Positions 334 to 60,680 are shown, counted from the stretch's first letter. The stretch: DNA of 63,286 bases from a bacterium (GCA_040753085.1 JBFMHI010000001.1:1-63286); one strand, 5' to 3'. Numbers and translations: made by a program. Notes: generated from the sequence alone by a model not told the origin.

Positions 334-418
334 GGTAATAGGGGCAGTAATTCTGGGAGGAGTATTTTTATACTTTATATGGGCATTTACTCATGAGCCC
401 AAAAAGAAACACAATTAG
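326..418 (+). CDS. 30-aa single-TM peptide, hypothetical
   Basis: Hand translation gives MIEVIGAVILGGVFLYFIWAFTHEPKKKHN. GGAGGT lies at 315-320, 5 nt before the ATG. Too short for the ORF track. The stop codon sits on the MITE junction. Confidence 0.3.
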   Translation: MIEVIGAVILGGVFLYFIWAFTHEPKKKHN

Positions 419-622
419 TAACCGTTCAGCCACGGATGCACACAGATGAAACACGGAAAATCCCGCTACGGCGTATTTTCCTGCAACTAAGGTTGTAGGG
501 ACAACCCGTGTGGTTGTCCGCCTACGGAACGGAGAGGGACAAGCTTTGTCCCTACAACTCAGCCTTCTGTCCTCTGTTATTTATCTGTGCTAATCCGTGT
601 TAATCAGTGGCTAAACAGTTAC
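418..622. mobile_element. MITE, family A (GTAAC-type termini), long variant
   Basis: Termini are GTAACCGTTCAGCCAC and GTGGCTAAACAGTTAC. A perfect 8-bp direct repeat CACAATTA lies at 410-417 and 623-630. The interior is collinear with the inverted copy at 31879-32102. Confidence 0.85.
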
Positions 623-642
623 CACAATTAAAGTCTGCATAG

Positions 643-1533
643 TTAAAACCGAAGGCTAAGGGAGAGGCGGTGGATGTTGTCCGAGTTGCGGTCATGTCTG
701 AGGAAGGCGTAATCGAGGCGGCATATCTTCCAGGTAAGTCCTAGGCCGGCGGTAACTTTAGCTTCTTCGTCTTCATCAAATTTGGCGCCTAATCTTAAAG
801 CCAGAGGGCTGCCCGGACGATATTCGGCCCCGAGTCCGTATTGAATATCTTCATCTTTTTCTTTAACGGCATCGAGGACAAAAATGGCCGTCTCATTAAA
901 AAGGTTTAAGGCCAAGCCGCTTCTGACTGTCCGAGGTAAAGGGTCTTCTTTAGGTCTATCATAACTCAGATTTTGGAGGACTAACCCGAATTTCAAAGGA
1001 CGGAAGGAAGCTATGCCTCCCACATCAAGGTAGTTGGCTTTAGTAATTTCAGCTTCCCTGTTCTTCTGGTAAATATATTTAAAGTTAGCCCCTATCTCGA
1101 AATTCCTACCTATCTTTCCGGCCCAGGCAAGAATCCCCAGCAAATCATAGGGCGTGAAAGAAGCTATCTCATCACCGGACTCGTCCCTTTGGCGTACTTC
1201 ATCTAAATGGAGATAAGTCAATCCCCCACCTACCGCCCCAAGCCTGCCCAGGGGATGGGCATAGCCGACAAATTCCTCTCGAATATCTCCGTAAAAGACA
1301 GCGTGGGTAAAGGCCAGCTCCTTTTCCCGGAGTTTCCCCAAACCAGCCGGATTCCAATGAAGGGCATTTATATCATCGCTTAAGGCCGTAAAGGCCCCCC
1401 CTAAGCCGGCTGGTCTGGCGCCAATCCCGATCTTCAGCAGACCGCTTCCGATATCTTCCTGTCCCAGGGCAATCCCCGACCAGAGGCAGACCATAAGAAC
1501 GAAAATGGTTGTTTGACTCTTTTTGGTCACCAT
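643..1533 (-). CDS. PorV/PorQ-like outer-membrane beta-barrel protein
   Basis: Signal peptide, then GARPAGLGGAFTALSDDINALHWNPAGL, a motif typical of PorV/PorQ/UPF0164-type barrels. The C-terminus ends in F. Confidence 0.55.
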   Translation of the reverse strand: MVTKKSQTTIFVLMVCLWSGIALGQEDIGSGLLKIGIGARPAGLGGAFTALSDDINALHWNPAGLGKLREKELAFTHAVFYGDIREEFVGYAHPLGRLGAVGGGLTYLHLDEVRQRDESGDEIASFTPYDLLGILAWAGKIGRNFEIGANFKYIYQKNREAEITKANYLDVGGIASFRPLKFGLVLQNLSYDRPKEDPLPRTVRSGLALNLFNETAIFVLDAVKEKDEDIQYGLGAEYRPGSPLALRLGAKFDEDEEAKVTAGLGLTWKICRLDYAFLRHDRNSDNIHRLSLSLRF

Positions 1534-1625
1534 TTTATTACCTCTAATTTTATCTTACTAAAAGCTCTTTCGTCAAGCAGAATTTTACTGCCTCGGTGAA
1601 AAATACGGTCCAGTGAACTTTTAGC

Positions 1626-1655
1626 TTGACATAATCAGCTCTATTGTGATATATT
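1626..1655 (+). promoter_or_regulatory. sigma70-type promoter candidate (TTGACA, TG-extended TATATT)
   Basis: TTGACA at 1626-1631 and TGaTATATT at 1647-1655, about 75 nt upstream of the LysW-like gene. Confidence 0.4.
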
Positions 1656-1730
1656 TCCGATGGTTCAACACGGCTAGCCTTGATAATGAAAGATCAAGGG
1701 AATAAATCTTAGAAAGGAGATAATAAAACC

Positions 1731-1892: not shown

Positions 1893-1897
1893 GAGAA

Positions 1898-3939: not shown

Positions 3940-5202
3940 ATGAAGTATGGACAGGAGGGACAGGGTGGAGATAGTGGACGAGGCGGCAGGGCCGGCCAAC
4001 CGGAAGTGGATAATCTGATTCCGAAGCACGGCGGCTATCGGAAGCTGAAGAGCTTTCAGATCGCGCAGTTGGTCTATGATGTGACGGTGCGATTTTGTGA
4101 CCGGTATATCGATAAGCGGAGCCGGACGCATGACCAAATGGTTCAGGCGGCGCGGTCAGGGGTGCAGAATATCGCTGAGGGGAGCCAAGCATCAGGCACA
4201 TCGAAGAAGTTTGAGCTGAAATTGACGAATGTGGCGCGGGCGAGTTTGGAGGAGTTGCGATTGGATTATGAGGATTTTCTGCGGCAGCGGGGGCTGTCAA
4301 AATGGGACAGGCAGGATGCGCGCCGGGCGGAACTGATTGATCGGCGGTTTGGAACCGTCGATGAAATCGCCGATTGGATACGGGAAGTTCATATCAGGAG
4401 TGGACTGAGTGGACAGAGTAGACAGGGTGGACAGAGTGGACTGAGTGGACAGAGTGGACTGAGTGGACAGAGTAGACAGGATGGACAGAGTGAACTGAGT
4501 GGACAGAGTGGACAGGGTGGACAGAGTGGACAGGGTGGACAGGGTGGACAGGGTGGACAGGGTGGACAGGGTGGACAGGGTGGACTGAGTGGACAGAGTG
4601 GACAGAGTGGACAGAGTGGACTGAGTGGACAGAGTGGACAGGGTGGACAGAGTGGACAGGGTGGACAGGGTGGACTGAGTGGACAGAGTGGACAGGGTGG
4701 ACAGAGTGGACAGGGTGGACTGAGTGGACAGAGTGGACAGGGTGGACAGGGTGGACTGAGTGGACAGAGTGGACAGGGTGGACAGAGTGGACTGAGTGGA
4801 CAGAGTGGACAGGGTGGACAGAGTGGACAGAGTGGACAGGGTGGACCGAGTGGACTGAGTGGACTGAGTGGACTTAGTGGACAGGGTGGACAGGGTAGAC
4901 AGGGTGGAGCGTCCATTGAGTCTACTTTGTCCACTAGGTCCATATCGTCCACTAAGTCCACCTTGTCCACCAAGTCCACCACGTCCATATCGTCCACTAA
5001 GTCCACCAAGTCCACCACGTCCACATCATCCACCAAGTCCACTTATCCCGAGATTGCGGCCAATGTCGCTTTGACGCTGATCGCGGTGGCCTGTAGTCTG
5101 CTGGATCGGCAACTGACGGCGCAGTCCAAAGCCTTTGAGCAAGAGGGCGGTTTCACAGAAAGGCTGTATCAAACGCGCCAAAGGGCAAAGAGGAATCAAT
5201 GA
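3940..5202 (+). CDS. four-helix-bundle protein (23S-IVS-like family with suffix domain) carrying a large in-frame repeat expansion
   Basis: The N-terminus has HGGYRKLKSFQIAQLVYDVTVRFC...QNIAEGSQA...ASLEEL. The C-terminus has PEIAANVALTLIAVACSLLDRQL...EGGFTERLYQTR. About 215 aa of GQS/GQG/GLS and STKST repeats lie in between. Confidence 0.7.
   Translation: MKYGQEGQGGDSGRGGRAGQPEVDNLIPKHGGYRKLKSFQIAQLVYDVTVRFCDRYIDKRSRTHDQMVQAARSGVQNIAEGSQASGTSKKFELKLTNVARASLEELRLDYEDFLRQRGLSKWDRQDARRAELIDRRFGTVDEIADWIREVHIRSGLSGQSRQGGQSGLSGQSGLSGQSRQDGQSELSGQSGQGGQSGQGGQGGQGGQGGQGGQGGLSGQSGQSGQSGLSGQSGQGGQSGQGGQGGLSGQSGQGGQSGQGGLSGQSGQGGQGGLSGQSGQGGQSGLSGQSGQGGQSGQSGQGGPSGLSGLSGLSGQGGQGRQGGASIESTLSTRSISSTKSTLSTKSTTSISSTKSTKSTTSTSSTKSTYPEIAANVALTLIAVACSLLDRQLTAQSKAFEQEGGFTERLYQTRQRAKRNQ
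4398..4908 (+). repeat. tandem 9-nt repeat RGTGGACWG, about 57 units
   Basis: Direct reading shows GTGGAC recurring every 9 nt. In frame it translates as Gly-X-Y-like GQS/GQG/GLS. Confidence 0.95.
4911..5045 (+). repeat. tandem 9-nt repeat GTCCAYNNN, 15 units, opposite polarity to the preceding array
   Basis: GTCCAC, the reverse complement of GTGGAC, recurs every 9 nt. Translated as S/T-rich STKST-like repeats. Confidence 0.9.
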
Positions 5203-8811: not shown

Positions 8812-9234
8812 ATGCTTGAATTTAACAGTCTGAAACACATATTTAAAGATTATCCCTATATTGCTTCAGCCTATCTTTTTGGCTCTCAGGCTACAGGGAG
8901 GATAATGCCAATGAGTGATGTGGATATTGCTATCTTAGTGATGGATAATGCTCCAAAGGGCAGAGAACTTTTACACGAAGAGGATTATCTATCTTACAGG
9001 ATTGCAGAGGGTTTGAAGGTAAGGGAGGTTGATTTAATAGATCTCAATAGTCAGGGATTGATCTTTCAACATAATGTTCTAAGGACAGGTAAGCTTATTT
9101 ACGATGCTTATCCACTATTCAGGATACAATTTGAAATGAGGGTAATTCCCCAATTTTGTGATTTTGAGCCAACCCTTAGATTTATTGAGCGGTTTCATTT
9201 TCAGGGTCGACTGAGGAGATTAGCAAGGGTATGA
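8812..9234 (+). CDS. mntA: MntA-like nucleotidyltransferase antitoxin (type VII TA)
   Basis: LFGSQATGR...SDVDIAILV (GS..DxD NTase motif). Overlaps the DUF86 gene by 4 nt. Confidence 0.8.
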   Translation: MLEFNSLKHIFKDYPYIASAYLFGSQATGRIMPMSDVDIAILVMDNAPKGRELLHEEDYLSYRIAEGLKVREVDLIDLNSQGLIFQHNVLRTGKLIYDAYPLFRIQFEMRVIPQFCDFEPTLRFIERFHFQGRLRRLARV

Positions 9235-9671
9235 ATTCCAGAGATATTCAGATAAAGATAGATATTATCATCAATAATTTTGAAAAATTAAATATTTTAA
9301 AGTCAAAGAGATACGAAGAGTTTATATCAGATTTTAGAAATATGGATTCAACCCTTCACATTCTTCAGACCTCTATCCAGGCACTCCTTGATATTGGGAG
9401 CTATATCATTGCCTCCCTTGGTTTGAGGACACCAAATACTAATGCAGAGATTATAAAGATATTGAGTGAGGCCGGACATATTGATCGAGATAAGGCAAAG
9501 ACCTACATAAAGATAACCCAGTTCAGAAACAGGATTGTGCACCTCTACAACCACATAGATACAGAAACACTCTACGACATCCTGGTTAATGAACTGGATG
9601 ACATAAAAGAATTCTATATAAACCTGCTTCAGGTTATTGAAAAATATCAAAGATGGAAAACCCCCAGGTGA
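9231..9671 (+). CDS. hepT: HepT-like DUF86/HEPN toxin
   Basis: RNRIVHLY gives the Rx4H HEPN motif near the C-terminus. Size and pairing with the NTase fit. Confidence 0.8.
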   Translation: MNSRDIQIKIDIIINNFEKLNILKSKRYEEFISDFRNMDSTLHILQTSIQALLDIGSYIIASLGLRTPNTNAEIIKILSEAGHIDRDKAKTYIKITQFRNRIVHLYNHIDTETLYDILVNELDDIKEFYINLLQVIEKYQRWKTPR

Positions 9672-12362: not shown

Positions 12363-12553
12363 ATGGCAGATGGCAACATTTGCGTTATCCGCGAGAATTA
12401 GGTGTCTGGTAGTCGTTAAACTATCAGCTCACCAGACTACCAGGCGCCAGACACCAGACTGATTGATCTTACGGGTTTCTCCTTACTGATAACCGATGAC
12501 CTATCACCTGGTTGCCTCGAGTTATTGAAAAGATACGTCTGGAGGATAGGGCG

Positions 12554-12886
12554 ATGATAGATTCTCAAGACATAAAAGAGGTTATCCATAGCATTCTCCA
12601 AAAACTTATTAGTGATTATGCCCCGCAAAAGGTGATTTTATTTGGCTCTCATGTTTATGGATATGCCGGACCAGACAGTGATATTGACCTTCTTATTATC
12701 AAAGAGACGGTAGACCGCTTCATTGATCGATGGGTGACAGTTCAACATATCCTCACCGGCACTCATCGATCCATTCCGGTAGAAGCCCTGGTGTTAACTC
12801 CTGCTGAGGTTGAAAAGCGGTTGGCTATTGGCGATCAGTTTATAGCGGAGATTCTGGAGAAAGGGAAGCTTTTATATGCCGCGTAA
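12554..12886 (+). CDS. nucleotidyltransferase-domain protein (antitoxin-like partner of HEPN)
   Basis: ILFGSHVYGYAGPDSDIDLLII motif. GGAGGA lies before the ATG at 12554. The track TTG at 12512 lies in a repeat shared with 19523-19560. Confidence 0.75.
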   Translation: MIDSQDIKEVIHSILQKLISDYAPQKVILFGSHVYGYAGPDSDIDLLIIKETVDRFIDRWVTVQHILTGTHRSIPVEALVLTPAEVEKRLAIGDQFIAEILEKGKLLYAA

Positions 12887-13304
12887 GGAATCGCTTTATC
12901 CGGCCGACTGGCTGCATATTGCAGAAAAAGATTTGAGACGAGTAGATCGACTTCTTGAGGAGGATGATCCGGAGTTGGCTGGTTTCTGCCTTCAACAGGC
13001 TGTGGAGAAGTTTCTGAAGGCGTTTCTTCTTTCCCAGGGATGGCAACTCCGACGGATTCATGATTTAGATACACTCCTTGATGATACGCTCGCCTATGAT
13101 GCCTCCCTGGAAAAATTTAGGAGTGTGTGTCAAAAGATTAGCGGCTTTTACTTTGTGGAGAGGTATCCCTTTGTTGTCGAGTCTGATATCACGGAGGAAG
13201 ATGTTCGCACCTCTCTGGAACAAGCTAAGAGGCTTATTGAAGAGCTTCGAAGGAAAGTTGCTGAAAGACGGGAAGATGCCGCTCCCTCGAATAACAATGA
13301 GTAA
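12876..13304 (+). CDS. HEPN-domain protein
   Basis: AEKDLRRVDRLLEEDDPELAGFCLQQAVEKFLKAFL...RRIHDLDTLL (PF05168-type HEPN). Overlaps the NTase gene by 11 nt. Confidence 0.75.
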   Translation: MPRKESLYPADWLHIAEKDLRRVDRLLEEDDPELAGFCLQQAVEKFLKAFLLSQGWQLRRIHDLDTLLDDTLAYDASLEKFRSVCQKISGFYFVERYPFVVESDITEEDVRTSLEQAKRLIEELRRKVAERREDAAPSNNNE

Positions 13305-14807: not shown

Positions 14808-15333
14808 TATTGAGACCTCTTATAATGGCCGCCTTACCGTTGTAGGTGTATACCGGGAAGATAACTCAGAAACAATAGGGGAGTTTCAAAACAAGGCGGT
14901 TGTTTCCAAAGGGACCAAAGGAAGCTCTATTCAGTTAATTGGGCAGATGATTACCCCAGCCGCCCTTCTTGAGATCCTTAAGGGGGTCAAAACTATCTTT
15001 ACTTATAATGGCAGTCGATTCGATCTGCCTGTTATTAAAAGGGTTGCTGGCCTTGATTTAAGAGGATACTTTAAGTCTCACGATCTAATGTATGACTGTT
15101 GGCGTCAAAACTTATATGGGGGATTGAAGGCGGTTGAAAGAAAATTAGGGATTAAAAGAAAACTTCCTGACGTAGACGGCTGGGAGGCAATGGCCCTCTG
15201 GGCCAGGTATGAACGATTTAATGACAAAGCTGCCCTGCACCAGTTGTTGATCTATAACCGGGAGGATATAGAAAACCTGCCCCTTTTGAGGGAGAAGCTA
15301 AGTGGTAACTGGTCAGCCGTAATCGGTAATTAG
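14785..15333 (+). CDS. RNase H-fold predicted 3'-5' exonuclease (YprB/COG3359-like)
   Basis: YLDIETS near the N-terminus, FTYNGSRFDLPVIKR and YNREDIENL blocks (DEDD-like arrangement). Confidence 0.6.
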   Translation: MRGEAYLDIETSYNGRLTVVGVYREDNSETIGEFQNKAVVSKGTKGSSIQLIGQMITPAALLEILKGVKTIFTYNGSRFDLPVIKRVAGLDLRGYFKSHDLMYDCWRQNLYGGLKAVERKLGIKRKLPDVDGWEAMALWARYERFNDKAALHQLLIYNREDIENLPLLREKLSGNWSAVIGN

Positions 15334-15390
15334 TGATAACCGATTACGGCTTTCTTCTCACCGAGAACCGATTACCGGATGCCTGAGTAA

Positions 15391-16278
15391 TTACTTTTTC
15401 ATCCGGGTGGCCCACCGGTTATGGAGCCAAAACCATTGGTCAGGATAGCGTCTGATATATTCCTCAAGCTTCTTGGACAGAGAGGCCACGTTGGCCAGAA
15501 TATCCTGCTTTCTATCGCCGGCTTGAATAAGAGGGTATGGTTTTTCAATAATGATTCGATGTCGGTTATCGGGCAGCCTGATGACAAAGAGGGGAAGAAT
15601 ATCGGCGCCTGTTCTCATAGCGAAGATAACCGGACCGGGCGGCGTGGAAGCCGGTTTATCAAAAAAACTGACAAATACCCCGCCTTTGCCTCCATCCTGA
15701 TCGGCTAACATCGCCACTGTCTCACCTCTTTTTAAGCGCCGCAAGACTTCCCCGGAGGCCCTTTTCATAGAGATAGTGGTAAGCCCTATCTTTTTTCGCT
15801 GAGCCTCGATTAAATCCTCGGTTAATTTATTCTTCTGCCTGCGAACAACCGTGGATAGAGGACATCCTTTTAGGGGAAGAGCAGACCCAATAAGTTCCCA
15901 GTTTCCAAAATGAGCCATCAAGATAATGATCCCACGTCCCCTGGCACGGGCCGCTTCTAAATGAGACCAGCCTTCGATTATAATCCGGCTGCCAAGCCCT
16001 TCCTCTACAAACTGAGGCAGGTGAATGAATTCTATTAAATTCTTTCCCAGATTCCGGTAGGTCTGTCTGGCTATCTCCTCTATCCCTTGAGAAGGTAATT
16101 GAGTCTGAAAAGCGGTCTTAAGATTATCCAGGGTTCGCTTTCTGTAATGCGGCAGCAGGAAGTAGGTTAGATCTCCTAATCTCTCACCTAACCAATATCC
16201 TGCCTTAAGTGGGAGTATTCGGATAAAGGAGGCAATAATCTGAACCAAAAGGTATTCCAGGTAGTGCTTGATATTCAT
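15391..16278 (-). CDS. LpxL/HtrB-family lipid A (Kdo) late acyltransferase
   Basis: MAHFGNWELIG (HX4E-type motif) and the length and layout of lysophospholipid acyltransferase family proteins. Confidence 0.75.
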   Translation of the reverse strand: MNIKHYLEYLLVQIIASFIRILPLKAGYWLGERLGDLTYFLLPHYRKRTLDNLKTAFQTQLPSQGIEEIARQTYRNLGKNLIEFIHLPQFVEEGLGSRIIIEGWSHLEAARARGRGIIILMAHFGNWELIGSALPLKGCPLSTVVRRQKNKLTEDLIEAQRKKIGLTTISMKRASGEVLRRLKRGETVAMLADQDGGKGGVFVSFFDKPASTPPGPVIFAMRTGADILPLFVIRLPDNRHRIIIEKPYPLIQAGDRKQDILANVASLSKKLEEYIRRYPDQWFWLHNRWATRMKK

Positions 16279-16451
16279 AGATGCTCGATGCTCGATGCTC
16301 GATGCTGGATGCTCGATCCTCGATCCTCGTTGCTCGATCCTCGATGCTCGATCCTCGATGTTCGATGCTCGATGCTCGATCCTCGTTGCTCGATCCTCGA
16401 TGCTCGATGCTGGATGCTTCGATGCTCGAGGCTCGAGGATCGAGCATCGAG
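16279..16451. repeat. CTCGATG-type degenerate tandem array filling an entire intergenic gap
   Basis: GCTCGATGCTCGATGCTGGATGCTCGATCCTCGAT... All three plus frames are open across it (track ORFs 16264, 16268, 16281). Confidence 0.9.
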
Positions 16452-19325: not shown

Positions 19326-19373
19326 TTTACCTATATCCCCTTTATCGGTGATCGGTCATCGGTAACAATTGAT

Positions 19374-19486
19374 GTAACCGTTCAGCCACCAAGGCACAAA
19401 GACACAAAGGGGAAAATATCTGTTGAGCTATTAAGAAATAATCCTTTAATCTTTGTGTGTTAGTGTCTTTGTGGCGGAACACTTAC
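19374..19486. mobile_element. MITE, family A, short variant
   Basis: Termini are GTAACCGTTCAGCCAC and GTGGCGGAACACTTAC. The 8-bp direct repeat CAATTGAT lies at 19366-19373 and 19487-19494. Confidence 0.85.
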
Positions 19487-19542
19487 CAATTGATTACTGG
19501 TTACTCCTCACCGATGACCGATCGCCTGGTTGCGCCGAGTTA

Positions 19543-22596: not shown

Positions 22597-22918
22597 GAAA
22601 AAAAAATTCGACCTGTGCGGTTAGATCTCTACTGCGAATGAGAAAACTATTACTATTCTCTGGGCAACAACAGGGCAACCACGTTTCGGCCAGTCGGAAT
22701 AGAGTCCGTTGTCCACATCGTCGGATTCCTCTTGACAAATTTAAGAATTTATAGTGTAATAGTAACTACTCAGCCATTAAGGCACAAAGACACAAAGACT
22801 ACCAATAATAGCACACGGATTACACGGATGAGACGGATTGACATGGAGCGTCTCGCCTGGGGTCATATTCACAGCCGGCACGGCTGTGGGCTGCTTTTGG
22901 GATAGGCACTAAGACGTT

Positions 22919-28676: not shown

Positions 28677-28692
28677 CGCACCACCTGAAATC

Positions 28693-32198: not shown

Positions 32199-32247
32199 CG
32201 AGGATCGAGCCTCGAGCCTCGAGCCTCGAGCATCGAGTCTCGAGCTC
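32199..32247. repeat. CTCGATG-type array, inverted orientation (right arm)
   Basis: CGAGGATCGAGCCTCGAGCCTCGAGCCTCGAGCATCGAG... Confidence 0.85.
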
Positions 32248-32820: not shown

Positions 32821-33230
32821 TCAAGGTCCGGTATTAATCGAGATTCAGGTGATAGTGAGATATGTCCGGATTCAACTATTCCTGAATAACGGCGACATCT
32901 TCTAAAATTCCGACCGCAAATGGAGGATTGCCTCAGGAAAGGGAGAAGATGGTTGAGGCCGGCGGCAGTCCGATGGGCAGACGGAGGTTAATTGAGCCTG
33001 ACTATTCGTCGGCCGGTCGGCTGGTTAAAGGGGAGATACGGTAACCACAAGGAGAACACCTTGTAAAAAGGCCAATAATTCAGGGGTTGGGATCTTTAAG
33101 GTTAAATAATTTTATTTATCTTAAATTCCACAACCTCTGATCCCTACCCCCTGAATTTAGGTGCCCTCCAGCGCCAGGGACGGCGCGGAGAACAAATACC
33201 CAATAATAATCATCAGGGAGGGTGATTGAC

Positions 33231-35826: not shown

Positions 35827-38055
35827 GTGAGAGTAGTTCATAATGTTCCAGCTATTAATTCTCATCGCAATGTAATGTCAACCAATCGGGCCTTGGCCAG
35901 AAATTTAGAGAAGATGTCCAGCGGTCTTCGGATCAATCGGGCTAGCGACGATGCGGCTGGATTGGCCATTTCTCAACGAATTGATACACAGGTTCTGGGC
36001 CTGGAACAAGGCATCAGGAATACCCTGGATGGCATTAGTGTTATCCAGACGGCTGAAGCAAGCATGCACGAGATACAGGAGATGCTTCAGCGGATGAGGG
36101 TGTTGGCCATTGAATCGGCTAACGGGTCTGAATCATCTGATCAACGGGAGATGATTCAGGCAGAGGTTGACCAGTTATTAGAGTCAATTAATGCCCAGGC
36201 CGAGGCGGCTGAGTTTAACGCCATGAAGCTGCTTACCGGTGATTTCTCGGAGACAGCCCCCTGGACCTGGAAGGCATCACGGACCAGTGGAGAGCAGGTG
36301 ATCGATAGCTCAAAGACGATCGATATCTACGCCAAGTTTTCCGAGGCCGGTTTTGAGACGGCTTTGGGCACACCAATGACGCCGGGTGGGTATGTCATTG
36401 TTAATGGAGCTGTTTTCTCCGTAACCGATTATGATTCGGTTAACGATTTTATGCGGGCCATTAACGAATCTAAACAGGCCAATGCTACTATCAGCTATGA
36501 TGTATTGACCGACCGCTTTACTATCACTTCCGATACCCCGGGAGAGGTTATGCGGTTGGCTGATATGGGTTCCGGCGGCAACTATGGGTTCTTCCAGTTG
36601 GTCAACATCGATGTGGGCGTTCTTACTCCACCGCCCGGCCCAACAGCCAGGGCCATCAGCCAGTATGAGGGCGCCGATGAAAATGATTCGATACCAGTAG
36701 GAACTCAAAATACCAAGATCATTGATCTTACCAAAGATTTCACCGCCCAGAACGGTGGATTTGATCACGATGTCGATGGCAGCTTCCGAATTAATGGGGT
36801 TATCTTCTCGGTGGCTGACTATGCCTCTATCGAAGAGATGATGAATGCCATTAACACCAACAAGGAGGCCGATGTCACTATTTCCTATGACCGCACCTAT
36901 GATGAGTTCACTATTGCTTCTAATACCGAGGGCAAAGACCTCACTCTTTCAGCGGTATCGGGCATAAATAATTTCCTCTATGAAGTGGAGCTCCTGGATG
37001 ATGAGGGAAATACCCAGAATGCGGACGGTTCTTACAACGGCAGCTTTTACAACCACTCCAATGTCTTTCGTGCCCCCATACCTAACGCCCTCGCTGAAAG
37101 TATCTATGAGGTTCGCCAGGATGATGTAGAGACGGTTAACAACGTCCGGGAGGTCCTGAACAAGGACAAGGTCAACCTGAATTATGGGGCTTTCTATGAT
37201 TCGGCCGGCCGGAAGCTTGGCCGGGTGTCTCAGAATGAGGCTTCGGAGGATCCAAATTATTCAGTGGCCTGGCGAGGAGGAGTTTGGGGCTCCGGCGATG
37301 GACAGGGCAGCGCCCCAACCGGTGATTACACTAATGATGCTTACCACAACTTTGACCAGTATATCACCGGGACTATAACCATCAACGAGGCCACCTTCTC
37401 TATTGCCAAGTATGATACGGTCAACGAACTTATCAAGGAAGTCAACGCCTCTCAGGCGGCCCGGGCAACTATGGGTTACGATACCATTGCCGATAAGTTC
37501 TGGATCAGAGCCGATAATCTGGATGAGGATCTCTTCCTGGCTGAAAATCGTTCCACTTCCGGCTTCGGTTTTTTTGAGGCAGCCAACATCACGGCCGGGC
37601 CGACAGGAACCTGGTATCACGCCGATGGCTTCACCAACCCCGACTGGCGCAAAGAGGGTTTAGTCTTCCATGTAGGGGCGAATAAGGACGAAGTTGTGGT
37701 TACCCACATTGCCACTATTTCGACCCAGTCCATGAAGGTCGATGTCCTGGAAAAAAACGGGGTAACCAATACCTTTGCCGCTGAGAGTGCCATTCAGCTT
37801 CTCAGGGATGCTATTGACTGGGTCTCAATGCAGCGAGCTGATCTTGGCGCCATCCAAAATCAGATGGAGCACAGGCTGAACTACAATGAGATCGCCTATG
37901 AAAATCAAACAGCCTCTCTGTCCAGGATCAGGGATCTGGATTTTGCTGAGGAAAGTATTGCCTTTGTCAAGAATCAGATCCTGCTGAATTCCTCGACGGC
38001 TATGCTGGCCCAGGCTAATGCCCTGCCACAAAACGTGCTGACCCTGATTAGCTAA
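35827..38055 (+). CDS. giant flagellin paralogue 3 (742 aa)
   Basis: MRVVHNVPAINSHRN...RINRASDDAAGLAISQR. C-terminal LGAIQNQMEHRL...RIRDLDFAEE...MLAQAN. IN-like repeats plus an extra insert. Confidence 0.9.
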   Translation: MRVVHNVPAINSHRNVMSTNRALARNLEKMSSGLRINRASDDAAGLAISQRIDTQVLGLEQGIRNTLDGISVIQTAEASMHEIQEMLQRMRVLAIESANGSESSDQREMIQAEVDQLLESINAQAEAAEFNAMKLLTGDFSETAPWTWKASRTSGEQVIDSSKTIDIYAKFSEAGFETALGTPMTPGGYVIVNGAVFSVTDYDSVNDFMRAINESKQANATISYDVLTDRFTITSDTPGEVMRLADMGSGGNYGFFQLVNIDVGVLTPPPGPTARAISQYEGADENDSIPVGTQNTKIIDLTKDFTAQNGGFDHDVDGSFRINGVIFSVADYASIEEMMNAINTNKEADVTISYDRTYDEFTIASNTEGKDLTLSAVSGINNFLYEVELLDDEGNTQNADGSYNGSFYNHSNVFRAPIPNALAESIYEVRQDDVETVNNVREVLNKDKVNLNYGAFYDSAGRKLGRVSQNEASEDPNYSVAWRGGVWGSGDGQGSAPTGDYTNDAYHNFDQYITGTITINEATFSIAKYDTVNELIKEVNASQAARATMGYDTIADKFWIRADNLDEDLFLAENRSTSGFGFFEAANITAGPTGTWYHADGFTNPDWRKEGLVFHVGANKDEVVVTHIATISTQSMKVDVLEKNGVTNTFAAESAIQLLRDAIDWVSMQRADLGAIQNQMEHRLNYNEIAYENQTASLSRIRDLDFAEESIAFVKNQILLNSSTAMLAQANALPQNVLTLIS

Positions 38056-40242: not shown

Positions 40243-40506
40243 ACTCGATACTCGATGCTGGATGCTCTCGATGCTGGATACGGGGAGTCTTTGCCTGCCT
40301 CGAGTATCCAGCATCCAGCCTCGAGCATCGAGTATCCAGCTTTATTGAGATTAGCACCCTGATTTATCAGGGTGATGCGAACCAGACAACATAGCAAGCC
40401 GTAACCGCTTCAGCGGTTTTAAATGAAAGATTCTAACCGGACAGGTCGATAAATTTGAGGCGATTGCCCTGACCCAGCATCGAGCATCGAGCATCGAGCA
40501 TCGAGC
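40243..40506. repeat. composite: CTCGATG arrays flanking element X (empty site, inverted copy)
   Basis: Arrays at 40243-40340 and 40473-40506. X lies at 40341-40478 and lacks the nested MITE. Confidence 0.8.
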
Positions 40507-40511
40507 AATCA

Positions 40512-41809: not shown

Positions 41810-41919
41810 GTAGCAACTTTATATCAAGAGCCAAGAGCCAATCAGGTGTTTAGGCTGAAGGCTGAAGTTCAATAGCCTTCAGCCTTCAGCCTATCCACCT
41901 GCGTAGTTACTGAGAGAAT

Positions 41920-44604: not shown

Positions 44605-45327
44605 TTGAGTGGACTTTTTATCACCGGAACTGATACCGGGGTAGGAAAAACTGTTGTGGCGGCCGGCCTGACCAGGGCCTACCGAGATATGGGACATCGG
44701 GTGGGGGTGATGAAACCTGTTTCAAGCGGGGCGATAAAGACACCAACCAGTGGCCTGGAGTGCCGGGATACCCGGCTGCTGATAGAGGCAAGTGGAATAC
44801 AGGAAGAAGTCAGCCTCATTAATCCCTATTGTTTTGAAGAAGCCCTGGCCCCGGCGGCGGCTGCCTCTTTAGCTAAAATAGAGATAGAGGTTGGCAAAAT
44901 CCTGGAGGCATATCATCTTTTAGCCCAAGGCTATGATCCGATGATCGTAGAGGGTGTGGGTGGGCTTCTTGTCCCTATTCGAAAAGACTACCTGGTTATC
45001 GACCTTGTCCGCGATCTTAACCTGCCCCTCCTGGTTGTAGCCAGACCTGGGCTGGGGACCATAAATCATACCTGCTTGACCGTCAAATACGCCCTTAAAG
45101 AGGGAATTAGAGTAGTGGGGATAATAATAAACGGTTTAAAAAAGGCCGGTCTGGCTGAAAAGACCAGCCCAGCTTTAATAGAGGAGATAACCGGCGTCCC
45201 TATCCTGGGCATCCTCCCTTATCTTTCTGACCTGACTGTTTCTACGGTGGCCGCCCTTCTAAAGAAAACCATATCGTCTCTACCCGTGATAACTCCTCAG
45301 GCAGATAGGCTGAAGGCTGAAGGCTGA
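44605..45327 (+). CDS. bioD: dethiobiotin synthase
   Basis: LFITGTDTGVGKTVVAAGL P-loop and EGVGGLLVP. TTG start. The last residues are encoded by the GGCTGAAGG repeat. Confidence 0.85.
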   Translation: MSGLFITGTDTGVGKTVVAAGLTRAYRDMGHRVGVMKPVSSGAIKTPTSGLECRDTRLLIEASGIQEEVSLINPYCFEEALAPAAAASLAKIEIEVGKILEAYHLLAQGYDPMIVEGVGGLLVPIRKDYLVIDLVRDLNLPLLVVARPGLGTINHTCLTVKYALKEGIRVVGIIINGLKKAGLAEKTSPALIEEITGVPILGILPYLSDLTVSTVAALLKKTISSLPVITPQADRLKAEG

Positions 45328-46424
45328 AGTTCAATAGCCTTCAGCCTATTTTTAATGGCTTGAATAAACCGCTCATTTTCTTCCGGTCGGCCAATGGTGA
45401 CCCTGAGATGGGTGGTTAGGCCGTAGCCGCCCATCGGTCGAACTACCACACCTTCAGCCAGTAATCTCTCAAAAACCCTTCTACCATCCTGCCCTACATC
45501 TACCAGAATGAAATTGGCTACCGAGTGAACAAAGGCTAGGCCCAGTCTCTTTAGTTCCTGAGTCAGATAGACATATCCCTCCTGATTGAGTCTTCGACAT
45601 TGCTTTGCATATTCTTCATCGTCTAAGGCAGCTACGGCTGCCTTCTGGGCCAGGGAATTGACATTAAAAGGCGGTCTAACCCGATTGATGGCTGAAATAA
45701 CCTCTGGTCTCCCTATCCCATACCCTATCCTTAACCCAGCCAGACCATATATCTTGGAAAAGGTCCTCAGGATAAGGATGTTCTCTCTCTCCTTTAGAAG
45801 TTCTAAACTTTTGGGGAAGTCTTCTCGGTCAATGTATTCGTAGTAGGCTTCATCAAAGACGACCAGGACTGATGAGGGGATCCGGGACAGAAAGTGACCT
45901 ACTGCTTGTTGAGTCACCATAGTGCCGGTGGGATTGTTAGGGTTGGCGATGAAGACAAGTTTGGTCTTAGGTGTAACGGCTTCGGCCATAGCCGGCAGGT
46001 CGTGAGTAAATTCCCTCAGCTTGACCGAGATACATTCTCCCCCTACCATAGCCACATTCTGGGCATAACGGATGAAGGCCGGCTCACCAACTACCGCCTC
46101 GTCACCCGGATTAAGATAAGTCAAGGCAAGCAGCCCCCCAATTTCATCCGAACCATTGCCCAGGATAATCCAATCAGGGTCTACGCCCAGTTTAGCCGAA
46201 AGGGCCTCTTTGAGGTAAAAACCTCCCCCATCAGGATAGCGGTTGACTTCAGCCAAAGAACCCTTTAAAGCCGCTAAGGCCTTAGGTGACGGCCCCCAGG
46301 GATTTTCATTAGAGGCAAGTTTGACCACATCAGTTAGCCCCAGTTCCCGGGCCACCTCGCTGACAGGTTTCCCCGGTTCGTAAGGCTGAACCTTGAGGAT
46401 ATTTGGTCTGGCTTTAAGCAACAT
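45297..46424 (-). CDS. hisC: histidinol-phosphate/aromatic aminotransferase
   Basis: SNENPWGPSP, YPDGGG, NPNNPTG and TFSKIYGLAGLRIGY blocks. The C-terminal tail is encoded by the opposite strand of the same repeat as the bioD tail. Confidence 0.85.
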   Translation of the reverse strand: MLLKARPNILKVQPYEPGKPVSEVARELGLTDVVKLASNENPWGPSPKALAALKGSLAEVNRYPDGGGFYLKEALSAKLGVDPDWIILGNGSDEIGGLLALTYLNPGDEAVVGEPAFIRYAQNVAMVGGECISVKLREFTHDLPAMAEAVTPKTKLVFIANPNNPTGTMVTQQAVGHFLSRIPSSVLVVFDEAYYEYIDREDFPKSLELLKERENILILRTFSKIYGLAGLRIGYGIGRPEVISAINRVRPPFNVNSLAQKAAVAALDDEEYAKQCRRLNQEGYVYLTQELKRLGLAFVHSVANFILVDVGQDGRRVFERLLAEGVVVRPMGGYGLTTHLRVTIGRPEENERFIQAIKNRLKAIELQPSAFSLSA

Positions 46425-47493
46425 CAGGCATCGACTCCCTGGGATAAGATCCCAGCACCTTCAAGAAAAGACATTCTTCCTTGAGCTTATTCAAGGCCTT
46501 TTTTACCTTGTCCTCCTCCACATGTCCCTGAAAATCCAAGAAAAAAATATATTCCCAGAGCTGTCTTCGTGAGGGACGGGACTCGATCTTGGTCAGATTG
46601 ATATCCAACTCGGCAAAAGGCTGGGTAATCCGATATAGAGCGCCAGGCCTGTCGGTAATCGAGAAGAGAATGGAGGTCTTGTCATCACCAGTAACTGGAT
46701 TGGGTTGATTTCCAAGAACCAGGAAACGGGTGTAATTCCCGGCCTTATCCTCGATATGCCGGGCCAGGATTTTAAGATCGTAAAGCTCGGCCGCTAAGGC
46801 CGAAGCAATAGCCCCGCTTTCGGAGTTTTCCTTAGCCAGCTTAGCCGCGGCCGTAGTACTGGAGGTTTCGATATATTCCACCCCCGGCAGGTTTTCCCTT
46901 AGCCAGGCTCGACTCTGCGCCAGGGGTTGGGGGTGGGAATAAAGCACCTTTATTTTCTTAAGCTCACAATTAGCCACTAAATTGAGCGAAATAGCCAGGA
47001 GAAGTTCAGCACATATATTCAACCTGGAATCTATTAACGTATCCAGGGTATAAGCCACTGAACCTTCAATAGAATTTTCGATGGGCACAACCCCGTAATC
47101 AGCTTCTCCTCGCTCGACCTCTCTGGCTACTTCAGGGATGCTCTGTTTAGGGATAAGATCAACCCCGGCGCCGAATTCCTTCCTGGCCGCCAGATGGCTA
47201 AAAGTTGCCTCCGGCCCCAAATAGGCCACCCGAACTCTTTTTGACTGAAGTCCTCTGGTCCCGGAGATAATCTCCCGATAAATGGCCACAATATTGTCTT
47301 CGGAAAGATGTCCGGCATTCAACCGCTTAATTCGTTCTAAAACAGCCCTCTCCCGGTCGGGTTGATAGATCGGTAGTTCCTCCTGCCGCTTGATTTGACT
47401 TATCTCTAAGGCTGCCTCCGCCCGTTTATTTAATAGCTCAATAATTTGGGCGTCAATATCATCGATCTTTGAACGTAATTCTGAAAGACTCAT
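46414..47493 (-). CDS. pheA: bifunctional chorismate mutase / prephenate dehydratase
   Basis: N-terminal LRSKIDDIDAQIIELLNKRA (CM type 2), the PDT domain with TRFLVLG, and the ACT domain ESRPS. Confidence 0.9.
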   Translation of the reverse strand: MSLSELRSKIDDIDAQIIELLNKRAEAALEISQIKRQEELPIYQPDRERAVLERIKRLNAGHLSEDNIVAIYREIISGTRGLQSKRVRVAYLGPEATFSHLAARKEFGAGVDLIPKQSIPEVAREVERGEADYGVVPIENSIEGSVAYTLDTLIDSRLNICAELLLAISLNLVANCELKKIKVLYSHPQPLAQSRAWLRENLPGVEYIETSSTTAAAKLAKENSESGAIASALAAELYDLKILARHIEDKAGNYTRFLVLGNQPNPVTGDDKTSILFSITDRPGALYRITQPFAELDINLTKIESRPSRRQLWEYIFFLDFQGHVEEDKVKKALNKLKEECLFLKVLGSYPRESMPDVA

Positions 47494-47554
47494 CCGTCAC
47501 TCCTTAATCCGCCTTCAGCCTTCAGCCTTCAGCCTATCTACCTGAGTAGTTACT

Positions 47555-51536: not shown

Positions 51537-51728
51537 CTCCTTTATTTACTGGTAGTAACTATACTCCTCAGGCGCCAGGACACCTTAGTCGTTCTTCATG
51601 TCCGTAACGAGCCGAAACAAAGGGAAGCTCAGACACGGATAACGCTCACGGAGGACGATGGGGTGTCTTTAGGGCGGAATAGTTACCATCAAAAGATACG
51701 GCTTAATGCCTAAAAGAAATCTTGGCGA

Positions 51729-51940: not shown

Positions 51941-51969
51941 TTTACAAATTGACCAAGATGTGGTATACT
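51941..51969 (+). promoter_or_regulatory. sigma70-type promoter TTTACA-N17-TATACT with TG extension
   Basis: TTTACA at 51941-51946 and TGgTATACT at 51961-51969. It is separated from lpxC/fabZ by two MITEs. Confidence 0.4.
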
Positions 51970-52029
51970 ATTTTTTTAATTGAAATTCGTAACTACTCAG
52001 CCCTCATTGGGAACACAGATAAAAAATAA

Positions 52030-52122
52030 CTAACTATTCAGCCACTAAGGCACTAAGGCACAAAGTAAAAGAATAATTCTTATAATCTTCGTGTCTTAGT
52101 GTCTTTGTGGCTGAATAGCTAC
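52030..52122. mobile_element. MITE, family A short variant
   Basis: Termini are CTAACTATTCAGCCAC and GTGGCTGAATAGCTAC. The TSD AAAAATAA lies at 52022-52029 and 52123-52130. Confidence 0.85.
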
Positions 52123-52211
52123 AAAAATAATTCCTGATAATCGGTGAAATCTTGGGTAATCGGTGAAATGGGTGGTCTTCTTTTGGTATGGCTAAGTAAT
52201 TACTGAAATTC

Positions 52212-52419
52212 GTAACTACTCAAAACTAAGTTAAGCAGTTAGTTGGGAGACAAAGCAAAATTCCCTCTCCCTTGATGGGAGAGGGATAGGGTGAGGGTGA
52301 AATGGGAGGGAGGGGAAGCTCTTATGCCGACGCTGTCAGGACAAAAGGAGATGAAACTTAACCCATAGCACTATAATCTGTAATGAGCTTACTTTTTTAA
52401 CTTGATTTTGAGTAGATAC
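52212..52419. mobile_element. MITE with GTAACTACTCAAAA termini
   Basis: The 24-nt arms are GTAACTACTCAAAACTAAGTTAAG and CTTAACTTGATTTTGAGTAGATAC. The TSD TGAAATTC lies at 52204-52211 and 52420-52427. The interior holds a GGGAGAGGG/GGTGAGGG-type hairpin. Confidence 0.85.
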
Positions 52420-52437
52420 TGAAATTCTAACCTAACA

Positions 52438-54577: not shown

Positions 54578-54588
54578 TTGAAAAGGAG

Positions 54589-57838: not shown

Positions 57839-57951
57839 GGCTCTGTCTCAGTTTCGGGTTTCGGGTTTGGGGTTTCGGGTTTTGGGTTGTAAGTGGCAGA
57901 TTATTCCGAGCCTCGATTTCGGATGTCTGATATTTTTGACTTTTTGGTCGG

Positions 57952-58660
57952 GTAGAGGTCAGGGGCCTTTCAGCCCCATTCCCCCCTAAGAACTGTACAT
58001 GTAAGTTTCCCCACATACAGCTCAAGCATCTCAAAGACGGCCCTTGTGGGACCCGCCCGACTGTGATTCTTCCTAAGTAAACTGGGCGCGAAATTCGCGT
58101 GCCGATAATGCCGGCAGTAGTTTGCTTTCCCTTTTGTTCCTTCACAGCCTTTGCGATACGCATTTACAGCCTTCTGACTTCCCGTTGAGCTTACTTCCAC
58201 TTAATGGAATTCCACTTCTCAGAGTCATCTGTGAGTGCACCAGCCTTTTGAGCCGTCATTTGCTTCCTCTTCTTCAAGGGTTCTCCAAATTCTCTCGCAA
58301 TGAGACACCAGTTGGACGTCAGCACGCTCTTTCACCAGTCGCCGAAAGCTTGCCAGTTTTGGCGTTGAGCCATATTTCATGCCCTATCTTTTGGCTTTCC
58401 CAAAAGCATTCGCTTCTTCCAACCTCTCCCTCCCGTCTCTCCATGGGCGTGCCTTGCGGGTTTCACTTGCCTGGCCTTGCACCAGGCAAAGGACGGGGTT
58501 ACTACGTTCCTCACAGTTGATCCTTTGGATGACTTAGGTGCGTCCTCTACGCCGATGGTTCTACAGTTCCGTGCAGGCAGTTAGAAAACCTGGCGCTCCA
58601 CCAGACGGCTATTCCGCTGCGCTCCATAGCCGCCGGTGAACTTGGTCGTTAAACATACGG
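57952..58660 (-). mobile_element. degenerate ORF-less group II intron remnant (domains IV-VI clear, 5' boundary unresolved)
   Basis: On the minus strand: domain V at 57990-58023; a D6-like helix with a bulged A ending ...CUCUAC near 57952; IEP remnants W.SIKWK*AQREVRRL*MRIAKAVKEQKGKQ with in-frame stops, joined directly to C-terminal-like LEPY-type sequence. Confidence 0.6.
57990..58023 (-). ncRNA. group II intron domain V
   Basis: The minus-strand read GAGCTGTATGTGGGGAAACTTACATGTACAGTTC matches the 34-nt D5 pattern: AGC triad, GAAA tetraloop, two-nt bulge. Confidence 0.75.
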
Positions 58661-58959
58661 AAGATAGACATACGGAAGATAGAAATCCGCCACAGTGAAA
58701 AATAAACGACAGGTGTTGGTTATCCAATGTTATCTACCATTATGGAATTAAGGATAAAGAAAGATGAAGAAGTTAAAAATATACAAAGTGCAAAAGTATA
58801 GGTGTTTAGTAATTCCGCAATTTTGACGGACTATTGGAGACCCCTGGGTCAATTTTTAATTGCCATTGACATATAGTCATATCAACTGCCCCAGTAAAGA
58901 CGCAAGTTTTTGCATCTCTACTCATTATACAACGGCATCATCTTCTTGCCAAATCTTTT

Positions 58960-59249
58960 CGACCTGTGAAATAGGCTTAAATAAAATGCAAGAAACTTCC
59001 CATAGACATAGATATTCAAGCTCTACTACTACTAAAAACAGGTCGCTCCTACGGAGCTGCAAATATATTGCTTTTGCGAAATACTACAAACAGATTGCTC
59101 CTAACGGAGCTTTATTCAGGTTAGCTCCAGAGGAGCGACATGTTTGTAGAATATATCTCTCATAACAAATTAGCTCCATAGGAGCGATCTGTTTATTCTC
59201 TTTCTTACCCTAATTGGGGGATATTTGTATAAACCTATTTCACAGGTCG
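58960..59249. mobile_element. MITE, family C
   Basis: The perfect 16-bp TIR is CGACCTGTGAAATAGG (58960-58975) and CCTATTTCACAGGTCG (59234-59249). The TSD AATCTTTT lies at 58952-58959 and 59250-59257. The interior holds four GCTCC-N3-4-GGAGC hairpins, two in each orientation. Confidence 0.85.
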
Positions 59250-59282
59250 AATCTTTTTTAGCCTCCATTTGGAATTGTTGTC

Positions 59283-59311
59283 TTGACAATCAGGGGGAGA
59301 TGTGTTATACT
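59283..59311 (+). promoter_or_regulatory. sigma70-type promoter TTGACA-N17-TATACT
   Basis: TTGACA at 59283-59288 and TATACT at 59306-59311, 40 nt upstream of the ATPase start. Confidence 0.5.
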
Positions 59312-59351
59312 TACAGGTATAATCTAAATAAGATAATCTAAGGAGGATAAT

Positions 59352-60680
59352 ATGGAAAACCCTTTCCGATATGGGGATATCGTCCGGGGAGATTATTTTA
59401 CTGACAGAGAAAAAGAGATTAAAGAGATCTGTCAGGACATGAGAAGCAGTCAAAATATCGTAACTACTCAGCCACCACATATTGATTTTGAAGCTTACAG
59501 AACACAATATATTGTGGTTCGTCTCCTTTTATAGGTTGCATAGAAAGCCGTTTTTTAGGAATTTTAGCTAACTTTTAAACACCTAAACACAATATGTTGT
59601 GGTTTCGCTAGGTAAGGCTACTATATAGAGGCTGAGTAGTTACAAAATATCTTCTTCTATTCACCCCGAAAATATGGCAAGACTTCCTTGATCACAAAAG
59701 TCCTTGGCCTTCTCCAGGCAGAAGGTCTCTTTACTATCTACCTGGACCTTTATCAGGTTCCCTCCAAAAAGGTCTGGCTGGAATTGTATGCTAAGGCTAT
59801 CTCTAAAGGGGTGGCAGGAAGGATCGAGGGGATAAAAAGATTCATAAAAGAATATCTACCCGGTTTTATTCCAAAGATTATCATTAAGGGGGAGGATAGC
59901 CCTGATATAGAATTTGAGTATGTTTCTTCCCGAAAGGGAATCGAAAGATATCTAATGGATGTTTACGACCTTCCCCAGAAAGTGGCTGAAAAGAAGGGAC
60001 GAAAAGGGGTCGTGGTCATGGATGAATTTCAGGAGATAAGAAATCTGGATGGTGAAGAAATGGAGAAGCAGATAAGATCCATAATTCAACACCACGATAA
60101 AATCTCATACGTCTTTGTGGGAAGCAAGAAAGGGATGTTATTGGACATCTTTACTAACAGAAAAAAGCCGCTTTATAATATTGGCAAGATGTTGACCCTT
60201 AAAAAGATTCCCGCAGAAAATATGGCCGAATTCATCAGAAATAGATTCAACCACACCCAACATTCAATAACTGAAGAAGTAATAGAAGAAATATTATCAC
60301 TCACTGAGAACCACCCTTATTTCACCCAGATGCTCTGTCACGAAATATGGGACCTTCTTTTTCCTGGTCAGGATGTTCAATCCAAAGATATCAAAGAAGC
60401 TATTAACCAAATCCTTTCTAACCAGTCAGAGCTTTATTTTATCATCTGGGATAGCCTCTCCCCTCACCAGAAGAACCTGCTTTTTGCCTTGACTAAAACC
60501 AGAAGCAGCAGGATATACTCAGCAGATTTCATTAATAATCACAGCCTGGGAAGCACTTCCATGATCCAAAAATCGATTAGGGCATTGCTTAATAAAGAGG
60601 TGATCGAGAAAAACGAGGGGATTTACGAAATACAGGATGTCTTCTTCCGGCAGTGGCTTCAAACAAGAATGCTGCCTTAA
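59352..60680 (+). pseudogene. AAA-type ATPase (archaeal-ATPase/DUF234-like) split by a MITE
   Basis: Removing 59460-59651 joins ...DMRSSQNI to FFYSPRKYGKTSLITKVL..., restoring the frame and a Walker A motif. A Walker B-like VVVMDEFQE lies downstream. Confidence 0.8.
59460..59643. mobile_element. MITE, family A, inserted in the ATPase gene
   Basis: Termini are GTAACTACTCAGCC and GGCTGAGTAGTTAC. The TSD AAAATATC lies at 59452-59459 and 59644-59651. Confidence 0.9.

Follow-up and report, generated by a model that had tools for sequence, protein, structure and literature searches.

The stretch of DNA analysed here (the window; GCA_040753085.1, JBFMHI010000001.1:1-63286; 63,286 nt) is an ordinary piece of the chromosome of an uncultured bacterium, Gram-negative and flagellated, and carries lpxC-fabZ, lpxA, a BamA-like gene, three flagellins, hprK, rapZ, leuS, and dxs. 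Scattered through it are short elements with inverted GTAAC termini, 90–225 bp in length (90–290 bp if an element with other termini, 58960-59249, is included), none of which encodes a transposase. They lie in AT-rich intergenic DNA, with one exception inside a gene. We conclude, with a probability of about 0.85, that the GTAAC-ended elements are non-autonomous MITEs (miniature inverted-repeat transposable elements) of the ISBst12 group, which belongs to the IS66 family of insertion sequences (IS). The set considered comprises seven elements from a preliminary description and the additional copies found when the window was re-read directly.

GTAAC-ended elements are flanked by 8-bp target duplications

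All seven elements of the preliminary description were read directly and possess inverted termini and 8-bp direct repeats, six of which are perfect and one a 7/8 match; six of the seven have GTAACYRYTCA(G) inverted termini, as had been claimed. Element 418-622 (subfamily A, 205 bp, minus strand) has termini GTAACCGTTCAGCC / GTAACTGTTTAGCC and a perfect target-site duplication (TSD), CACAATTA, at 410-417 and 623-630. A second subfamily A element, 31879-32103 (225 bp, plus strand), ends one nucleotide beyond the position 32102 first assigned to it, and its flanking octamers, CTTTCGTT (31871-31878) and CTTTCATT (32104-32111), match at 7/8 positions. Subfamily B is represented by 19374-19486 (113 bp, CACAAAG-type subterminal repeats, hairpin fold z = -5.7), bracketed by a perfect CAATTGAT at 19366-19373 and 19487-19494, and by the 93-bp element 52030-52122, a near-perfect hairpin (z = -12) with the perfect TSD AAAAATAA at 52022-52029 and 52123-52130. 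The 184-bp element 59460-59643, which lies in an ATPase gene, has GTAACTACTCAGCC at both termini, identical over 14 nt, and a perfect TSD, AAAATATC, at 59452-59459 and 59644-59651.

The locus 51981-52427 contains one nested and one tandem insertion. Element 52030-52122 is nested in 51989-52203 (215 bp; termini GTAACTACTCAGCC / GTAATTACTTAGCC), which measures 114 bp without the nested element and a single copy of that element's TSD. The perfect TSD of 51989-52203, TGAAATTC, occupies 51981-51988 and 52204-52211. The second of these copies is shared with the adjoining 208-bp element 52212-52419 (termini GTAACTACTCAAAAC / GTATCTACTCAAAAT), whose perfect duplication is completed at 52420-52427. Since both elements are bracketed by TGAAATTC, this octamer occurs three times, in the order repeat-element-repeat-element-repeat. 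The list of seven was therefore incomplete: 51989-52203 is an eighth intact element, of the GTAAC type, and decayed, solo, and mini copies had been omitted as well. Across the eight intact elements, 58960-59249 included, seven duplications are perfect and one is 7/8, and their sequences differ except for the common TGAAATTC.

The terminus and the duplication both stand far above background. The 12-mer GTAACYRYTCAG with at most one mismatch occurs 22 times in the window against 1.5 expected, and the 16-mer GTAACYRYTCAGCCAC is found 14 times when up to two mismatches are allowed, where 0.06 occurrences are expected; the consensus terminus is GTAACYRYTCAGCC. The probability that two random 8-mers of the window are identical is 4e-5, and flank identity in the window is found at k=8 only, with none at k=6, 7, 9, or 10.

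Behind this common terminus the elements are diverse. Elements 418-622 and 31879-32103 lie in opposite orientations and are ~85% identical in pairwise alignment; their homology ends exactly at the GTAAC termini, and their flanks are unlike each other. Elements 19374-19486 and 52030-52122 are likewise related, while alignment scores of all other element pairs are at shuffle level. The claim that the interiors are unrelated thus fails for these two pairs and holds for the others; the 93 to 224 bp given as interior lengths are lengths of whole elements. There are about six subfamilies (at least six), which have only the terminal 12–16 bases in common. Since several subfamilies share one type of terminus, they plausibly depend on one type of transposase.

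Heptamer-like subterminal repeats (CACGGAT, CACAAAG, GGCTGAA, GTAATCG) are present in several subfamilies. Tandem heptamer arrays of up to 27 copies (GATGCTC, CTCGATG, ATTTCGG, and similar) are located at 16280-16436, 27866-27899, 31642-31828, 32199-32245, 40476-40507, and 57851-57888, and two of them, in inverted orientation to each other, flank the MITE 31879-32103.

Removal of one element restores an ATPase gene

The gene of a PF01637 AAA-type ATPase (59352-60680, plus strand) is split by element 59460-59643, which sits after codon 36 of the reading frame starting at 59352. In-silico removal of the element together with one AAAATATC copy (59460-59651) yields an uninterrupted open reading frame (ORF) of 378 codons, free of any further stop or frameshift. 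The restored 378-aa protein has 939 homologues at E<=1e-20, and nearly all of the 120 homologues listed are ~377 aa long and align across 98–100% of it. Element 59460-59643 is an insertion into a formerly intact gene. The database entry for the ATPase on the source contig is a truncated 343-aa version only, and the truncation is now accounted for by the MITE insertion.

Could the elements instead be repeats with a defined structure, for example REP-like hairpins, terminators, or genes of small RNAs, with flanking repeats that are coincidental or part of a longer conserved unit? The strong hairpins, with fold z values from -3.8 to -12, would suit this explanation, and so would the occurrence of TGAAAT(T)C 5' of the same 28-nt terminus at both 28685 and 51981, where the 8-mer could belong to the element. 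The flanking repeats, however, vary between copies and match at exactly 8 bp only, homology between copies stops at the GTAAC termini, precise excision restores the interrupted gene, no Rfam family matches any element, and the signature recurs with differing 8-mers in other genomes (see below). We regard the explanation by structured repeats as extremely improbable, and for the set as a whole it is effectively refuted. The repeats are duplicated target, as the preliminary description had proposed, rather than part of a longer conserved element. Small size (below ~600 bp) without a transposase, terminal inverted repeats (TIRs), TSDs of fixed length and variable sequence, and a target restored on excision, which are the attributes of MITEs, are all found here.

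The elements carry the ends of ISBst12-group transposases

Inverted repeats of the IS66 family begin with GTAAGCG and give 8-bp direct repeats, according to an account that cites TnCentral (PMC11946415). GTAA-initiated inverted repeats combined with an 8-bp duplication are an IS66-family hallmark. The precise form present in the window is that of the single-ORF ISBst12 group. ISDge4 of Deinococcus geothermalis, a member of this group, encodes a transposase of 449 aa between TIRs GTGACTACTCAGCA / GTAACTGCTCAGCA and is flanked by 8-bp direct repeats; its transposition has been observed experimentally, and the reported retention of the donor site suggests a copy-and-paste mode (PMC12898284). We read a further IS66-like element directly on the Geobacillus kaustophilus plasmid pHTA426 (record L244, 14107-15741). 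It comprises 1635 bp, with termini GTATCTATTCAGCCC / GTAACTATTCAGCCC, the TSD GACGAGTT on either side, and a 485-aa transposase containing PF03050, PF13005, and PF20042.

A tblastn search with the pHTA426 transposase matched 190 plasmid records, from which ten diverse matches were taken, and ends were found for nine of them. The 1630-bp element of Bacillus thuringiensis pLM4 has GTAACTACTCAGCTT at both ends and a duplication matching at 5/8 positions. Perfect 8-bp duplications surround the single-ORF IS66 elements of Acaryochloris (termini GTTACTGCCCAGGC), Octadecabacter (GTAACTCCCAAG), Streptomyces (GTAAGCATTCAG), Halococcus (GTATCTGTTTAGCG), and Nostoc (GTAAGGATTCAGGT), as well as Trichormus ISAva2 (also GTAAGGATTCAGGT) and Halobacterium ISH10 (GTACGTGTTTAGCC); the GTA-type termini of these seven, which come from bacteria and haloarchaea, are a looser form of the window signature. 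The 8-bp repeat is perfect in eight of the ten IS copies examined. The window consensus is identical over 12–14 nt to the ends of ISDge4, the pHTA426 element, and the B. thuringiensis element, and the window elements have the GTAACTGCTCAGC-like ends starting with GTAA and the 8-bp repeat of ISBst12-type elements. Thus, the window MITEs carry the ends of ISBst12-group transposases. The earlier proposal that they are non-autonomous and mobilised in trans is supported by homology that ends at the termini, by the excision that restores the ATPase gene, and by ISBst12-type IS with the same ends.

An alternative is that the MITEs were moved by another transposase family that makes 8-bp duplications, namely ISL3, IS1595, IS256, or the three-gene canonical IS66. 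An 8-bp duplication is shared by other IS families and is not unique to ISBst12. The ends of ISL3, IS1595, and IS256 start with GG-type sequences. Element 58960-59249 also produces an 8-bp duplication with quite different termini, and the lineage, as far as the window and 80 genome loci represent it, shows no transposase. What speaks against another family is the identity of 12–14 terminal bases with single-ORF IS66-family elements, both those read directly and those in the literature; the inverted repeats of canonical IS66, moreover, start with GTAAGCG rather than GTAACYR. We therefore consider one of these other families an unlikely mover.

Several observations weigh against assignment to the ISBst12 group or against a set that is still mobile. 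The window contains no IS66-type transposase detectable by tblastn with 11 queries at E<=0.1, and Pfam scans of 20 window ORFs revealed no transposase, in line with the preliminary description. The 80 genome loci contain neither an IS-sized terminus pair nor an IS66-type transposase, by a search for paired termini and by tblastn. Thus, no cognate autonomous element is seen in the lineage. Likeness to the 11 IS copies examined is confined to the outer ~12–16 nt, and no MITE is recognisable as an internal-deletion derivative of a known IS; the missing subterminal similarity concerns how the MITEs arose and not which type of transposase suits their ends. The subfamily A copies are 15% diverged, and several copies lack a duplication or a second end. 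Finally, no empty orthologous site was found in the closest relatives, which have protein identities of 94%, 84%, and 74% and are represented by short contigs (1.4–4.6 kb) with intergenic DNA that is not alignable. In the 94% relative, identified by LpxC (L122), another repeat sequence abuts the same TGAA(A)TTC position and the contig ends there; in the 84% and 74% relatives (L121, L123, and L255) the intergenic DNA could not be aligned.

We infer that a host ISBst12-type transposase is the mover and that it acts by cut-and-join chemistry. The enzyme would be a single-ORF DDE transposase (DUF6444, zf-IS66, DDE_Tnp_IS66), encoded elsewhere in the genome or formerly present, and would recognise the outer 12–16 bp of the inverted termini (GTAACYRYTCAGCC) alone. 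The element ends would be joined to target DNA, preferably AT-rich, whose two strands are cut 8 bp apart, and gap repair of the staggered target would generate the 8-bp direct repeat. Because short termini would suffice, unrelated interiors could all be moved in trans.

In a whole-element comparison, BLAST of two complete MITEs against the plasmid collection gave no real match. On a plasmid of Nostoc sp. UHCC 0302 (record L252, 440-2142), an IS66-type element (584-2130, TSD CTGAATTC) has apparently inserted into the terminus of a GTAAGAATTCAG-ended element, which hints that such transposases may target sequences like their own ends.

Decayed, chimeric, and solo copies

Besides the intact elements, the window holds copies with incomplete signatures, three of which have paired termini and no TSD. 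The degenerate 90-bp element 15305-15394 (termini GTAACTGGTCAGCC / GTAATTACTCAGGC, fold z = -3.8) has convergent genes on either side. Element 28693-28864 (172 bp) has exact termini, and 16 nt separate it from the downstream start of gene 27954-28676 (minus strand); it is probably a chimera of two elements, because its left 28 nt are identical to the left end of 51989-52203 and its right end is of the subfamily A type. The third, 51556-51686 (~131 bp), is degenerate, with right terminus GTAACTATTCCGCC and an indel in the left terminus. At 28693, where there is no duplication, a near-identical TGAAATC precedes the same 28-nt terminus (GTAACTACTCAGCCCTCATTGGGAACAC). The recurrence of TGAAATC/TGAAATTC at 28685-28720 and 51981-52427 could reflect a target hot-spot, carried-over flank, or chance.

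Solo ends are found at 22762-22840 (plus strand, subfamily B-like, GTAACTACTCAGCCATTAAGGCACAAAGACACAAAG, without a partner end) and at 60960-60993 (minus strand, GTAACCGTTCCGCCAACCAC), the latter adjoining heptamer-like sequence. Subfamily F includes a mini-element of ~76 bp at 41835-41910 (minus strand, fold z = -9.5) with one good terminus, GTAACTACGCAGG, a GGCTGAAGGCTGAAG hairpin, and a decayed second terminus. It also includes an end at 45289-45350 (plus strand, ATAACTCCTCAGGCAGATAGGCTGAAGG), which overlaps the 3' ends of two convergent genes and provides their final codons, and a solo end at 47500-47553 (minus strand, GTAACTACTCAGGTAGATAGGCTGAAGG) directly upstream of the start of gene 46414-47493 (minus strand). 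Segments 45289-45329 and 47513-47552 form an inverted subfamily F pair of 40 nt, 95% complementary, around two genes whose N-termini suggest an aminotransferase and a chorismate mutase / prephenate dehydratase. We do not claim a composite transposon made of these inverted ends and the two biosynthetic genes, as there is no target duplication.

The divergence and decay bear on whether the set is still mobile, and the label 'active-looking' in the preliminary description goes beyond what the copies support. An identity of 85% together with decayed copies points to old as much as to recent activity, and the elements might be immobile relics whose transposase has since been lost by the lineage; that label would then be wrong, their origin by transposition still holding true. 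The 15% divergence between subfamily A copies is consistent with such relics, as are the three copies without duplication, the six solo or mini ends, among them those at 22762, 41835-41910, 45289, 47553, and 60993, and a transposase missing from the 63 kb. On the other side stand seven perfect duplications, a split ATPase gene with no other lesion across 378 codons, nested and tandem insertions, and the termini of 59460-59643, which agree at all 14 nt; each of these would be compatible with later loss of the transposase. Immobility is the less probable state, though a real possibility, and assignment of the elements to the ISBst12 group is compatible with it.

A second family at 58960-59249

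The seventh element of the preliminary description had been singled out for its different termini and identical TSD length, and this distinction stands. Element 58960-59249 (290 bp, not of the GTAAC family) is bounded by a TIR of 28 nt that starts CGACCTGTGAAATAGG and by a perfect 8-bp TSD, AATCTTTT, at 58952-58959 and 59250-59257; it is a MITE from a second family, for which the target duplications are likewise 8 bp long. The whole element folds into a hairpin (z = -9.6) and contains four internal copies of ACAGRTYGCTCC-N-GGAGC, which repeat the outermost terminal bases beside a small hairpin. No second copy is present in the window. A scan of metagenomes for paired termini recovered two elements with the 13-nt termini of 58960-59249, with unrelated interiors and no duplication, and a 20-mer scan of viral contigs gave no match to the element.

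Just before this MITE, a match to group II intron domain V/VI (Rfam RF00029, 58 bits) is located at 57947-58025 on the minus strand, in a segment extending to ~58650. Upstream on the same strand, a short stretch broken by stops is reminiscent of the N-terminal part of an intron reverse transcriptase. By these matches, the segment 57947-~58650 has the look of a group II intron that is degenerate or lacks its ORF.

The same signature occurs in other genomes

One genome per species was scanned for paired termini 165–225 bp apart. At least 120 such stretches are present in the species-representative genomes, compared with ~6 expected by chance (a rough estimate for the whole collection). The hosts among the matches listed belong to Chloroflexi, Desulfobacterota, Gamma- and Betaproteobacteria, Firmicutes, Bacteroidota, Cyanobacteria, Verrucomicrobiota, Planctomycetes, Elusimicrobia, Nitrospirota, KSB1, Calditrichota, Deinococcus, Methanotrichaceae, and Methanococcoides. 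Flanks long enough for the comparison were available for 77 elements; the 8-bp duplication is perfect in 41 of them and has one mismatch in nine more, against 0.04 expected from permuted partners. The same 77 elements give no matches at k=5, 6, or 9–12, one at k=4, and one at k=7, and their targets are AT-rich. The preliminary description had named a general lack of flanking repeats among the copies as a result that would overturn it; for the wider superfamily this is not the case, and the present genome stands outside that count.

Some elements of Desulfobacteria, Deltaproteobacteria, and Firmicutes metagenome-assembled genomes (MAGs) have subterminal repeats of the GGCACAAAG type, as in window subfamily B. 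Near-identical MITEs with these repeats occur in a Deltaproteobacteria MAG (L185, 4531-4723) and a Firmicutes MAG (L200, 5332-5525), a likeness that reflects either horizontal transfer or mis-binning. In viral contigs, a single 14-mer terminus gives chance-like single matches among those listed, which are uninformative.

These data raise the doubtful yet attractive possibility that elements with GTAACYRYTCAG ends and 8-bp duplications constitute one very widespread, uncatalogued MITE superfamily in dozens of bacterial phyla and in methanogenic archaea, in which ISBst12-type transposases would require no more than ~12–14 terminal bases and any short sequence that acquires such ends would become mobile, including the heptamer tracts that abound in this genome and form the subterminal regions of several subfamilies. 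If true, the origin of heptamer arrays and the varied MITE interiors would be tied to a single transposase group. Ends of the GTAACYRYTCAG type together with 8 bp single out MITEs across a broad spectrum of bacteria and archaea and may offer a simple annotation rule and a route to studying trans-mobilisation by ISBst12-type transposases.

Host and neighbouring features

The nearest relatives of the host are the MAG GCA_030019105.1 (74–84% protein identity) and a Logan assembly (94%, LpxC), and homologues beyond these reach at most ~58% identity. The BamA-like protein has further homologues in TA06, Zixibacteria, KSB1, and Latescibacteria, at no more than 40% identity. The contig of the 94% relative starts inside heptamer-repeat sequence directly upstream of lpxC, and L255 contains CACGGAT-type repeats like those of window subfamily A, without GTAAC ends. 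The shortness of the relatives' contigs (1.4–4.6 kb), one of which starts in repeats, suggests that repeats fragment assemblies in this lineage.

A candidate sigma-70-like promoter, identified by consensus match only, lies at 51941-51969 (plus strand; TTTACA, a 17-nt spacer, and TATACT with TG) upstream of the MITE stack. Between this promoter-like site and the start of lpxC-fabZ (52438) there are now three stacked insertions, which together with residual spacer amount to ~470 bp.

Within ORF 3940-5202, a tandem array of the 9-nt unit GAGTGGACA, with ~57 copies followed by an inverted counterpart, spans 4398-5043; the N-terminus of this ORF has a weak match, under the gathering score, to the family of 23S rRNA intervening-sequence proteins. 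Nucleotidyltransferase genes lie in 8812-9671, 12512-13304, 27954-28676, and 61029-61379. Those scanned with Pfam are 12512-12886, 27954-28676 (which also has a HEPN domain), and 61029-61379, and the remaining loci look, from their sequence, like nucleotidyltransferase/HEPN toxin-antitoxin-like pairs. The three flagellins are large paralogues, encoded at 29677-31638, 33222-35228, and 35827-38055.

Comparison with known systems

We found no description of a set of ISBst12-derived MITEs in the searchable literature, and literal searches of papers for the terminus sequences returned unrelated primer matches only. The kind of element is nevertheless familiar: these are MITEs with the ends of a known IS group, they reveal no new mechanism, and the repeats can now be annotated as ISBst12/IS66-type MITEs.

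The closest likeness is to the ISBst12 group itself, which occurs in bacteria and archaea and has TIRs of the form GTAAC/GTRAC...TCAGC (ISDge4, GTAACTGCTCAGCA; pHTA426, GTAACTATTCAGCCC; B. thuringiensis, GTAACTACTCAGCTT) and target duplications of exactly 8 bp. ISBst12 elements, in contrast, are autonomous, 1.55–1.63 kb long, and carry one DDE_Tnp_IS66 gene, whereas the window elements are non-coding and 90–225 bp long, share only the outer 12–16 bp with them, and have no parent found in the lineage. Canonical IS66 elements (tnpA-tnpB-tnpC; IS66, IS679) resemble the window elements in their 8-bp repeats and GTAA-starting ends; they differ in having GTAAGCG ends and three genes, and GTAACYRYTCAG is the form carried by the single-ORF elements.

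Nezha, a cyanobacterial MITE (Zhou et al., 2008) also reported from Polaromonas, is similarly small and non-coding, with TIRs, direct repeats, and hairpin potential, and is likewise presumed to rely on an IS transposase acting in trans. The heptamers and the MITE style had suggested the cyanobacterial Nezha / ISNpu3 family for the window elements. We rejected this candidate because the direct repeat of the published Nezha copy, CATTATCTAC, is 10 bp long (PMC6042816) and the repeats here are exactly 8 bp; the comparison is by repeat length and not by TIR. A cyanobacterial host was rejected as well, since homologues indicate an uncultured Gram-negative lineage whose distant relatives, at ~40% identity or below, are in TA06, Zixibacteria, KSB1, and Latescibacteria. 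Correia, RUP, MITEAba12, MaeMITE, and Chunjie share with the window elements their architecture, mobilisation in trans, AT-rich intergenic targets, and occasional gene disruption or ORF fusion, and differ from them in their termini, duplication lengths, and parent IS families.

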